Source: Gemmatimonadota bacterium (GTDB taxonomy: Bacteria > Gemmatimonadota > Gemmatimonadetes > Palauibacterales > KS3-K002). Taken from it: 64,000 nucleotides of DNA. Made by a program: the position numbers and the translations under genes. Numbering within the stretch: the stretch's first letter is position 1; every line of letters begins with the position of its first letter. The stretch is from positions 7,027 to 71,026 of the forward strand of contig JBDHAL010000001.1 of the NCBI GenBank assembly GCA_039588075.1, in the 5' to 3' direction. The notes beneath the pieces are model-generated. The model made no database searches and was not told the origin of the DNA. It saw only the letters and a list, made by a program, of their open reading frames with translations. Shown here one piece after another: positions 36,976-41,180 of the stretch.

Positions 36976-37289
36976 TTAACCCGGTTCGGGCGTTCGCGAA
37001 AGACGCGGCGGTGGTGCGGGATGGGGCGGGGTCATCTCGCTCCAGGTCGCGCCGGACGGGCGGACGGGCGGGACGGGCAAACCGCGCTCCAACTTGCGCT
37101 CGACGACCCCCGCCCCATCCCTTGAGGCCGCGGTAATGACTGCAAGTTCGAACTTTGTTACCGCGAATAGGAGGGCGCAGCGGGGACCCTCGAGCGGATA
37201 TTTGGAGCGCCCCGGCCCGTCACGCGCTCCAGCCCGACCGGCGCGACATGGAGCGAGAGGGTCCCCGTTGTGCCCGACCGCCAACCGCG
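36976..37289. repeat. composite array of GC-rich modular hairpin repeats, just 3' of dnaE2
   Basis: Contains a GGGATGGGGCGGGG unit, its reverse complement CCCCCGCCCCATCCC, the hairpin gcggtaatgactgcaagttcgaactttgttaccgc and the unit GCGCGACATGGAGCGAGAGGGTCCCCG. Confidence 0.6.
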
Positions 37290-40200
37290 CTAATGAAAAT
37301 CGTGGCTATCAACGGCATCGGCGCCGGCCCGGGGCTCGATGGCCTCGATGCGCCGGGCCTGGATGTTGATCACGCCCTGCTCGTTCTGGGCGATTCCCTC
37401 GATGAGCAGGACCGGCGAACGAACGATGGTCTTGCGGTAGCGGTGGAACAGGTCTTCGTAAACCACGAAGTTCGAGAACCCGGTCTCGTCTTCCAGCGTG
37501 ATGAAGCAGACCCCCTTCGCGGTGCCGGGGCGTTGCCGGCAGATCACCACGCCCGCCACCTTCACCCGCTGCCCGCTTCGTACACCTTTCAAACCCTCCG
37601 CCGATAGCACTCCATGGGCATCGAGCGTCGCACGCAGGTGCTCCATAGGATGACCGTGCGTGCAAAGCCCGGTGGTCATGTAATCGGCGGCGACCAGTTC
37701 GATCCGCTCCATCTCCTTGAGCTTCGGCCGCCGCTCCGACTCCACCTTCGCAAGCGGGCGCTGTGCCAGCCGGGCGAGCACCTCCCAAAGTGCGGAGCGC
37801 CGGCCCGGCCATAGCGTGTTGAAGGCACCCGCCTCGGCGAGCGTCTTGAGCGCCGGCAACCCGAGCCCCGAACGCCGCACCACGTCCTCCACTGACCGGA
37901 ATGGTCCCCCAGCCTCCCACGCCGAATTCAACTTCTCCTCCGCCTTCGACCCCAGCCCGCGCACATAACGCAGGCCGATCCGCAGCGCGGGAGCGCCTGT
38001 GAACCCTAATTCAGAATTCTTGCCGCGAGCTCCAGGGATGGGGCGGGGGTCGTCGAGCGGACCCCCGCCCCATCCCGCCCCACCACCGCGCTCCAACGTG
38101 CAATCCCAGTTAGAGCTGGCGAGGTCGACCGGCCGCACCTCTACTCCGTGTCGGCGCGCGTCGTGGACCAGGGTACCCGACGCGTAGAAACCCATCGGCT
38201 GGGAGTTCAACAACCCGCCGAAGAACTCGGGCGCGTAGTAGCACTTGAGATAGGCAGACGCGTAAACGAGCAGCGCAAACGATGCTGAATGGCTCTCCGG
38301 GAAACCGTAGTTGGCGAAGGCGGTCAGCTGTTTGACGATCTGTTCCTGCACCTCCGGGGTGACGCCGCGCTCGCTCATGCCGCTGCGCAGCGCCGGCTCG
38401 ATCAGCGCCATCGCCTCACGCGATCGCTTGAACCCCATCGCCCGGCGCAACGCGTCCGCCTGTCCGGGTGTGAACCCTGCTAGCGCCACCGCCACCTTCA
38501 TCCCCTGCTCCTGGAAGAGTGGCACGCCCAGCGTTCGGTGAAGGATCGGTTCCAGGTCCGGATGCAAATACGTCACCGGCTCTTCGCCGCGCCGGCGGCG
38601 CACGTAGGGATGCACCATGTCGCCCTGGATGGGACCCGGTCGGATGAGCGCTACCTGTACCACCAGGTCGTAGAAATTCTCCGGCTTCAGGCGCGGCAAC
38701 GAGTTCATCTGCGCGCGGCTCTCGATCTGGAAGACGCCCACCGTGTCCGCCGCCTGGATCATCCGATAAACCTCCGGATCGCTCGCCGGTAACTGCGCGA
38801 GATCTATCGTCACGCCGCGCGTCTCGCGGATGTAGCGGATCGTCTTCGCCAGGCAGGTCAGCATCCCCAGACCCAAGAGGTCGATCTTGATCAGCCCGAC
38901 GAAATCGAGATCGTCCTTGTCCCACTGGATGACCGTGCGGTCGGGCATCGCCGCCGGTTCGATGGGGGCGACCCGGGAGAGCGGGCGTTCGGTGAGCACG
39001 AAACCGCCCACGTGAATCGAACGGTGGCGCGGCAGTTCATCGAGCCCGCGCACCACGTGCACCAACGCCCGCACGCGGCGGTCCCTGGGATCGAGACCGC
39101 AAGCGGCGAGGCCGCCGCTCTCCAGAGCATCCGCGGCATCCGCCGCCTCGAGTCGCTCGACCTCCGATGCCAGCAGGTCGGCCACATCGGTGGAGAAGCC
39201 GAGGACCCGCGCGGCGTCGCGGACGGCCGAACGCCCCCGATAGGTGATCGTCTCGCACACCATCGCCGCGTGCTCGCGACCGTACTTGCGATAGACGTAC
39301 TGGAGCACTTCCTCGCGCCGCTCGTGCTCGATGTCCAGGTCGATATCCGGCGCGCTGCCGCGCTCCTCCGACAGGAAGCGCTCGAACAACAACTCGAACT
39401 TGATCGGATCCACCGCCGTGATCCCCAGGCAGTAACAGACGCACGAATTCGCCGCCGAGCCACGGCCCTGCAGCAGGATCCCCTGCCGCCGTGCGAACCG
39501 CACCACGTCCCAAACCGTCAGGAAATATCCCCCAAGGTCGAGACGCCCGATCACCTCGAGCTCGTGCCGTATTTGACGACGCACTTGGGCGGTCGGGCGC
39601 GGCGGGGATCCTCGTTTTGGTTTCCGTGGCGGGTCGGGCGCGACGGGAGGCCCTCGCTCCATGTCGCGCGATGGGGGGCAGAGAGGCGAGCCGGGCCGGG
39701 GCGCTCCAAATATCCGCTCGTGGCCCCCCGTCGCGCCCTCCCCCTCCGGTAGCTGGAGGGGGTCCCGCCGTGCCCTCCTATTCGCGGTAATAACTTTGAA
39801 CTTGCAGTTATTACCGCGGCTACAGGGATGGGGCGGGGGTCGTCGAGCGTAATTTGGAGCGCGCTTGCCCGTCCCGCCTACTTGCCCGTCCGGCGCGACA
39901 TGAAGCGAGATGACTCCCGTCCCATCCCGCCCCCCCACCGCGACTCCCGCCCCATCCCGCCCACCTCCGTAACGTTCCAGCGCACCCTTCCAGACGAGCG
40001 ACTCGAGGAATTCCTGCCGCGTCAGGCCCGGGGGCACCTGGAACCCCGGCATCTCCGGCGAAAGGTCCACGAGCCGGAAAGGACACTCGGCCGCCAGGAC
40101 GAGCGTGTTCTCCACCACGTCCGGTCGATGGCGCCAGCGCCGCCATACGACCGACGGCGGCTTCAGGTACCACTCTCCGTTGGGACGCAGGCGGGTCCCC

Positions 40201-41096: not shown

Positions 41097-41180
41097 AAAA
41101 GCCCCACACTCGATGGGTGGGGAGCCAGGGCGGAGGGTTGCGCTTCAAAGGTGGGGGGAGTGGGTGTCCCTCCGCCCTGG

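Follow-up and report, generated by a model that had tools for sequence, protein, structure and literature searches.

The dnaE2 locus and its repeats

The window analysed here, a stretch of 64,000 nucleotides (nt) of contig JBDHAL010000001.1 from a Gemmatimonadota bacterium (GC content 64 %), carries a dnaE2 gene for an error-prone DNA polymerase, in and around which a family of GC-rich hairpin repeats is concentrated. The initial annotation recognized four repeat units, U1 to U4, and regarded them as independent modules shuffled into different orders and partly used as coding sequence. The concentration in and beside dnaE2 and the use as coding sequence are borne out by the present analysis; the independence of the modules is not, as U1, U2 and U4 are pieces of a single element of ~125-140 nt, here named X, which occurs whole, nested, truncated or without its core. 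Read from end to end, X consists of an outer stem of ~20-25 base pairs (bp), block 1 (CGAGCGGACATTTGGAGCGC), a variable inner hairpin of ~30 nt, block 2 (GCGCGACATGRAGCGAG) and the other arm of the outer stem. U1 corresponds to one variant of the arm together with the start of block 1, U2 to block 2 together with the other arm, and U4 to block 1 on the opposite strand. The U1 arm and the U3 hairpin are private to the source genome, whereas the core blocks are common to the whole family.

The gene and the copies of X in the window are as follows, with the supporting evidence in brackets; 2HPI is the Protein Data Bank entry for Thermus aquaticus Pol III alpha.

37290-41060, minus strand: dnaE2, error-prone DNA polymerase III alpha, 1256 amino acids (aa) (translation of the open reading frame, ORF; Pfam PHP, DNA_pol3_alpha, finger, HHH_6 and OB)
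40551-40763, minus strand: dnaE2 insert site 1, ~aa 100-170, within the PHP domain (break in the 2HPI alignment, orthologue alignment, profile matches)
40598-40759: nested X in insert site 1; outer arms, 40612-40628 and 40741-40757; inner X, 40653-40732; partial block 2, 40729-40759
39585-39965, minus strand: dnaE2 insert site 2, ~aa 366-492, in the PHP/palm interval, formed by composite cluster C (self-BLAST, profile, fold, 2HPI alignment)
39588-39611: orphan arm of cluster C
39621-39749: X copy C1 of cluster C, with X on the minus strand
39739-39757: small hairpin of cluster C
39783-39818: U3 hairpin of cluster C, 13-bp perfect stem (DNA fold, z = -5.9)
39814-39941: X copy C2 of cluster C, with X on the plus strand
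39942-39958: extra half arm of cluster C
37983-38099, minus strand: dnaE2 insert site 3, ~aa 988-1026, at the fingers/HhH junction (orthologue and 2HPI alignments)
38035-38076: core-less X hairpin in site 3, 17-bp arms at 38035-38051 and 38060-38076, loop GTCGAGCG (z = -3.8)
36996-37289, no strand assigned: composite cluster A, directly 3' of the dnaE2 stop codon (self-BLAST, profile)
37005-37121, minus orientation: X copy A1 of cluster A
37129-37165: diverged U3-like hairpin of cluster A
37162-37289, plus orientation: X copy A2 of cluster A (DNA fold, z = -3.05)
32064-32147, plus strand: copy E, a 5'-truncated X between convergent EamA-like and LuxC-like genes (profile match)
51083-51134, no strand assigned: copy F, an intergenic core-less X hairpin with arms at 51094-51119 (DNA fold, z = -3.9)

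The inventory of the window amounts to two composite clusters, one the reverse complement of the other (36996-37279 against 39632-39950, with 79-84 % identity in the BLAST self-comparison), one nested copy, two core-less hairpins and one truncated copy. Seven copies were found with a profile of the ~85-nt unit, at 32064-32147, 37005-37087, 37206-37289, 39623-39705, 39858-39942, 40653-40732 and, partially, 40729-40759. The 25-mer U1 recurs with at most one mismatch at 37097-37121 on the minus strand and at 38035-38059, 39825-39849 and 40612-40636 on the plus strand, and U4 recurs exactly at 37191-37212 (minus strand) and 39699-39720 (plus strand), the chance expectation being 0 in both cases. 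The exact form in which U2 had been written is not present, the unit being represented by two matches at up to three mismatches and by the seven profile copies. Both the perfect U3 hairpin and its diverged copy exist, although their positions had to be corrected from 39785-39820 to 39783-39818 and from 37150-37185 to 37129-37165, respectively. The hairpin described as U1 paired with its reverse complement was located at 38035-38076, and the copy noticed near 51 kb is an arms-only hairpin at 51096-51124; the arms of this latter copy (copy F) are GGGCGCGGCGG and CCGCCGCGCCC, with a CGCG clamp on either side. The tail of the LuxC-like ORF is likewise supplied by a repeat, as originally noticed: positions 32084-32147 of copy E encode, on the minus strand, the last ~20 codons and the stop, so that the protein ends in ...VTRGECGVRQGPPRSMSRRTGK in the window as opposed to ...RFVDLEAD at the syntenic locus L009, which is without copy E.

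A hairpin with an invariant centre and covarying arms

The window, six orthologous loci and the metagenome contigs together contributed 129 copies of X. These were pooled and folded one at a time, a check that the initial annotation had proposed, and 105 of the copies were included in a multiple alignment (alignment A2). A single fold and architecture is common to all 129 copies. The arms fall into subfamilies that differ widely from copy to copy and yet are complementary within each copy: changes on both sides are found in 15 of the 15 pairs of the outer stem, 90 % of the outer-stem cells are paired compared with 74 % in shuffles, and cells with a double change number 385 compared with 122. 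The resulting covariation score of 0.441 was not reached in any of 500 shuffles (0.154 in shuffles) and drops to 0.06-0.13 with the partner columns displaced. The stem contains more G-U cells (95) than A-C cells (40), and therefore one particular strand of X appears to fold. This excess suggests that the folding strand is the one carrying GGAGCGC...GCGCGACATGAAGCGAG, a suggestion and not more because the copies of X are not independent of one another.

The element has no coding capacity of its own: its length is only ~130 nt, and stop codons interrupt five of the frames of cluster C, the sixth and only stop-free frame across 39575-39965 being that of dnaE2. A minority of copies have GTAGCGGAC in place of CGAGCGGAC. 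In addition to complete copies, there are half copies and core-less, arm-only hairpins (in the window, 38035-38076 and 51094-51119) as well as copies of X nested within X, where the inner copy lies between CGAGCGGAC and CATGAAGCGAG (L017, L020, L087 and window 40598-40759). As a separate observation, one subfamily with the arms GGGGACGGCGGGGGATCCTC (L034, L110, L124 and L126) is itself enclosed by a larger palindrome with the ends CTAGTGTTCGACCACAGT...ACTGTGGTCGAACACTAG, which suggests nesting between different repeat families.

Dispersal of X

Metagenome contigs were scanned with the core pattern GGAGCGC-N24-40-GCGCGACATGRAGCGAG, which is present in at least 120 contigs (~0.9 Mb of fragments), and the counts given below for the metagenome sample are based on this set. 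Since the same core occurs in so many contigs next to unrelated neighbours, X is a dispersed family and not the artefact of a local duplication, the outcome that would have undone the original proposal. Copies were classified as intergenic or coding with a simple gene caller that relies on ORFs and on the GC content of codon positions and that recovered the genes of the window. Among the contigs listed, there are 118 profile matches, of which 87 (about three quarters) are intergenic and 19 lie deep within an ORF, with the others near gene ends. After removal of duplicates, 115 distinct copies are listed, including 76 that are intergenic and outside dnaE2 loci, 16 inside dnaE2 and two inside imuB. 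The intergenic matches listed are situated between tandem (34), convergent (22) and divergent (5) genes, that is, with a preference for gene 3' ends, and the orientation of X relative to the genes is nearly random (16 same and 18 opposite for tandem genes; 11 and 8, respectively, within coding sequences). The 145 ORFs that neighbour X in the sample represent 125 different Pfam families. Given these diverse neighbours and the mostly intergenic location of the copies, we see neither the general preference for the interiors and ends of ORFs that had been proposed nor a general clustering near DNA-repair genes, which had been raised as a possibility. The possibility that X lies promoter-proximally in a DNA-damage regulon was not borne out either, no enrichment being seen among the 10 downstream genes checked of 41. 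These are common housekeeping genes: they encode DprA (twice, one locus on two contigs), DnaJ, TruA, an acyl-CoA ligase, a Ser/Thr kinase and a protein with a weak epimerase-like match, and three are without a family match.

X is probably specific to one clade of uncultured Gemmatimonadota. The core pattern gave no match in the viral contigs scanned, and the 22-nt arm of U1 produced only four chance matches, all in Actinobacteria, among the GTDB representative genomes, which do not include the source genome. A search of Rfam (Rfam 15) returned nothing better than E = 2 for the window between 31 and 42 kb and nothing at the gathering score for L020, L050 and L069, and a protein search with the six-frame consensus peptide of X returned nothing at E <= 1. 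When the peptide of insert site 2 was compared by HMMER with 1.84 billion representative proteins, three matches were obtained, two of them to unrelated repeat proteins, and this search is therefore of low power; the third match is a membrane protein whose C-terminal tail derives from X. Together with the LuxC-like gene of the window, this protein shows that X can supply such tails. In the literature, we found no description of X repeats or of repeats in dnaE2 or imuB, and the exact sequence of the window DnaE2 is not on record. Annotation pipelines will label the inserts in dnaE2 as protein and the intergenic copies of X as small ORFs.

The two-block pattern was also observed in a conserved stretch of the soil contigs L050, L053, L060, L069, L105 and L130. 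In L050, L060, L069 and L105, this stretch is at the 5' end of a stop-to-stop ORF that by eye resembles RNase Y. The X profile gives no match to these stretches, and their fold is no better than that of shuffles.

X inside dnaE2 and imuB

The dnaE2 reading frame is unbroken across all three repeat inserts, as seen in the ORF list and in the translation. Orthologues, which are named error-prone DNA polymerase in the databases, range from 977 to 1322 aa in length, and the differences are at the three insert sites of the window, namely after LVTRGR, after ERYGG and after WDCTLE. In related Gemmatimonadota, the identical three sites hold hypervariable X-derived inserts that, taken together, are translated in all six frames. 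The alignment with 2HPI breaks exactly at the same places, namely inside the PHP domain (query residues 99/171), between PHP and palm (365/493) and between fingers and HhH (987/1027). Peptide motifs that recur in the inserts, SSRSMSR, SLHVAPDG, (A/S)CRA (CRAGRA), RDM(K/E)R, ARHEAR and ATWSE, are the six reading frames of X; it is the DNA, and not a peptide, that recurs.

In the six orthologous loci (23.5 kb each, from six NCBI assemblies), all 14 matches to X are inside dnaE2 and none is found in 120 kb of flanking sequence. A comparable restriction holds for the metagenome sample, where all 18 deep coding copies are in either dnaE2 (16) or imuB (2). Three deep matches outside dnaE2 were checked singly. 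Two of them are in the linker of a Y-family-like protein (IMS, IMS_C and an ImuB-type C-terminus) whose orthologues are named ImuB by JGI, and the insert represents a single event in one subclade; the third was discarded as a coding copy because of its position upstream of where a GDSL lipase gene starts. Overall, copies in or adjoining dnaE2 account for ~14-23 % of all sampled copies of X, and both in the window and in L113 a copy of X directly follows the dnaE2 stop codon.

Several features of the surroundings of dnaE2 were noted as well. In the clade of the window, dnaE2 is not adjacent to imuA or imuB, and in L005, L006, L008 and L010 its divergent neighbours are three conserved genes, which encode a ~200-aa hypothetical protein, an ArsR-like protein (HTH_5/HTH_34) and a DUF4153 protein. 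The dnaE2 leader (41061-41215, minus strand) is nearly invariant in the six orthologous loci and contains promoter-like hexamers (TTGCG and TATATT), a direct repeat TTCGG-N6-TTCGG that covers the -10 region and is possibly an operator, and a 13-bp hairpin (CCAGGGCGGAGGG/CCCTCCGCCCTGG) followed by a terminator-like hairpin with T6 (41117-41103). Judged by these features, the leader looks like an attenuator or a cis-regulatory RNA; it has no match to an Rfam family.

Turnover at the insert sites

In the dnaE2 genes of close relatives, the X regions are 72-91 % identical compared with 96-99 % for the flanks. Two loci, L087 and L009, with flanks that are 91-97 % identical, differ by one whole X (~125 nt) adjoining a half X. 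The occupation of the same three sites in the relatives, the fast change and a remnant of an X arm in L008 indicate that the sites are old, continuously occupied and in rapid turnover. On account of that remnant, site 3 of L008 was rejected as an empty site, and L009 is too diverged to serve as the empty counterpart of the window copy E, which is itself truncated.

Origin and nature of X

The reading that we favour, with a probability of roughly 60 %, is that X is a non-autonomous, self-nesting, dispersed hairpin repeat of the general kind of REP, ERIC, MITEs (miniature transposable elements with inverted repeats) and Rickettsia palindromic elements (RPEs), which is kept in-frame in permissive loops of proteins. 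Under such a scenario, copies of X would spread through the genome, mainly into intergenic DNA 3' of genes, and would insert preferentially next to or within one another, in the latter case between block 1 and the CATGRAGCGAG portion of block 2. The nested and mosaic clusters so formed would then be reduced by internal deletion, leaving half copies and hairpins without a core. Three loops of dnaE2 that tolerate extra residues would be occupied by X, and because only variants that contain no stop and whose length is divisible by three would survive there, the DNA would be read as an arbitrary peptide rich in Gly, Arg, Pro and Ser. Self-nesting and exchange with other copies would keep the three sites filled and hypervariable in all relatives. 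We infer the mobility of X itself; its hairpin, its strand asymmetry and the invariant motif in its interior suggest that X might move as single-stranded DNA through the action of a hairpin-recognizing enzyme of the HUH/Y1 type encoded elsewhere in the genome.

Several observations weigh against this reading. No transposase or other mobilizing gene is among the 25 most frequent Pfam families of the 145 neighbouring ORFs, and no gene of the HUH/Y1 type was found near the copies when the frequent neighbour families were inspected. In alignment A2, X is most conserved at its centre and least conserved at its termini, the reverse of a classical MITE. A check for target-site duplications, proposed in the initial annotation, revealed no clean duplication: none is visible in the pair L087/L009, which differs by the presence of one X, and although CGCGR flanks 24-30 % of the copies compared with 10 % of control windows, this motif is therefore probably a part of the ends of one subfamily, the CGCGA flanks being subfamily-specific. 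Furthermore, the tolerance of loops alone does not explain why the 18 deep coding copies are all in two linked genes, dnaE2 and imuB, and the model also leaves unexplained the share of the sampled copies that are in or adjoin dnaE2. Shared descent across the related genomes, loops that vary in length without X, and self-targeting may together account for the dnaE2/imuB pattern.

An alternative that we consider unlikely, but the most serious one, is that X is primarily a functional, structured or cis-acting RNA, such as a 3'-end stabilizer, a terminator or a target of RNases, and that the copies in dnaE2 and imuB control the level or the translation of the mRNA. Strong covariation of the stem around an invariant internal loop of 37 nt is what such an RNA would display, as are the G-U excess, which implies one folding strand, the location at gene 3' ends and the intactness of cores and arms in the dnaE2 copies. 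However, X is oriented almost randomly relative to the genes, both in tandem intergenic regions and in coding sequences, and has no Rfam match. The arms of a palindrome can be kept complementary by mechanisms acting on DNA, without any RNA function, and nesting, half and core-less copies, and presence or absence between nearly identical flanks are typical of mobile or recombining DNA. A further proposal, which we likewise regard as tentative and rather doubtful, combines two claims: that a dedicated enzyme recognizes the invariant 37-nt core as a novel motif, either in single-stranded DNA or in RNA, and that the exclusive coding residence in dnaE2 and imuB reflects a real coupling to the SOS mutasome. 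Such a coupling might consist in insertion aimed at the two genes on their induction, or in hairpins that are selected within their mRNAs or DNA to brake or switch error-prone synthesis.

Improbable in our estimate is a mechanistic coupling of X to the ImuB-DnaE2 mutasome or the SOS response, through insertion directed to these genes, for example into single-stranded DNA exposed on induction, or through hairpins that would be selected there as switches or brakes of mutagenesis. It would explain why deep coding copies are restricted to dnaE2 and imuB in the sample and to dnaE2 in the six orthologous loci, why X follows the dnaE2 stop codon in two cases and why the X regions evolve faster than their flanks. 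Nevertheless, most copies are elsewhere, beside unrelated genes, the imuB insert is one event in one subclade, and the dnaE2 counts are inflated by the shared descent of the sampled relatives. The loops and linkers of DnaE2 and ImuB vary in length even in lineages free of X, and no SOS-type operator was recognized in X.

A local duplication, an artefact of the assembly or an ordinary low-complexity linker of DnaE2 can be practically dismissed as an account of the repeats: although four of the six window sites are in or beside one gene, no fewer than 120 independent contigs share the core with six NCBI assemblies, both strands and all six frames are represented, and the stem covariation excludes simple low complexity. 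Two further candidates were rejected, namely an intein or self-splicing intron, given the occurrence in both orientations and all six frames and the lack of a Pfam intein domain or an Rfam intron family, and the paired template and variable repeats of a diversity-generating retroelement, given that the copies differ by rearrangements and indels and not by point changes. The gene tables listed for the orthologous loci contain no reverse transcriptase, the other genes of the window not having been scanned for one.

Relationship to known repeat families

Returning to X as a dispersed repeat, it agrees with the generic description of a dispersed palindromic repeat, in that it occupies many unrelated positions, has kept its hairpin and lacks coding capacity; the conserved terminal inverted repeats and target-site duplications that define classical MITEs are not seen. 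In behaviour, X is closest to the RPEs because both reside in-frame in genes. RPEs, reportedly described by Ogata and colleagues in 2000, are palindromes of ~100-150 nt that are found both in intergenic regions and in-frame in protein genes, where they are translated as extra segments in permissive loops. X is alike in the size of the palindrome, in its intergenic and in-frame residence and in its translation as extra loops (in dnaE2, imuB and C-terminal tails). The two differ in that their sequences are presumably unrelated and in that X has a GC-rich host from another phylum, Gemmatimonadota as opposed to the alphaproteobacterial hosts of RPEs, and the likeness is one of behaviour only, no RPE sequence having been compared. 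Moreover, RPEs are present in many different genes, whereas deep coding copies of X are confined to dnaE2 and imuB, and X is distinguished by its invariant centre and variable arms, its self-nesting and the use of all six frames at the same sites.

With REP, BIME and REPIN sequences, X shares extragenic hairpins 3' of genes in both orientations, mosaic clusters and a conserved motif beside a variable stem, and its strand asymmetry is consistent with an activity of X as single-stranded DNA, as for REPs and REPINs with the RAYT enzyme (Y1 HUH). REPs are short hairpins (20-40 nt) in which a 5' GTAG tetranucleotide is conserved; X (~130 nt) is three to five times as long, its conserved motif is internal and not a 5' GTAG, and its copy number appears to be low, probably tens per genome. 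No RAYT gene was seen in the ~0.9 Mb of contig fragments, and to our knowledge REPs are not in-frame residents of one specific gene. ERIC and Correia elements, which are enterobacterial and neisserial repeats, respectively, resemble X as imperfect palindromes of ~125-150 nt that could form long hairpins in transcripts, have size variants caused by internal indels and are located in transcribed intergenic regions, but they are bounded by terminal inverted repeats that are conserved and by TA target duplications, whereas X has variable ends and no demonstrated duplication; we know of no association of these elements with mutagenesis genes. Finally, PATEs, which are derived from IS200/IS605, share with X the dependence on a hairpin, an apparent strand specificity and the absence of a target-site duplication, and self-targeting to a short specific sequence would be plausible for both. 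Nevertheless, no relative of TnpA or TnpB was identified for X, nor were defined hairpins of a left and a right end that carry guide and cleavage tetranucleotides, and the resemblance is mechanistic only.

X would be a counterpart of the RPEs in a GC-rich free-living bacterium of an almost unstudied phylum, with an unusual architecture that combines an invariant centre, freely covarying arms and recursive self-nesting. Its presence in dnaE2 indicates that a polymerase conserved elsewhere can bear up to ~240 extra, fast-changing residues in three loops, and these loops are candidate permissive sites for the engineering of DnaE-family polymerases. A mechanistic basis for the restriction to dnaE2 and imuB, if there is one, would tie a repeat family to stress-induced mutagenesis.

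Other repeats in the window

In addition to X, the window contains a second palindromic family of ~185 nt with the arms GCAATTTCGAACACCGCACACCGAACACCGCC, represented at 14156-14362, 41255-41438 and 45424-45610, with one copy just upstream of the dnaE2 leader. A third palindromic family consists of runs of GACAAC/GTTGTC hexamers (CGACAACGACAACGACAGCGAGAAACGAGAA) at 8977-9113, 21842-21937, 56731-56790 and 58031-58159. Runs of GGTAACCGGTAACCGG are found at 12266-12350 and 51042-51073, one of them beside the core-less X hairpin at 51.1 kb, and a palindrome of CGAACATCGAAC is located at 5273-5483. The run of (CTC/TTC)n at 34738-34968 encodes a poly-Glu tract on the minus strand, within an ORF of 314 aa.

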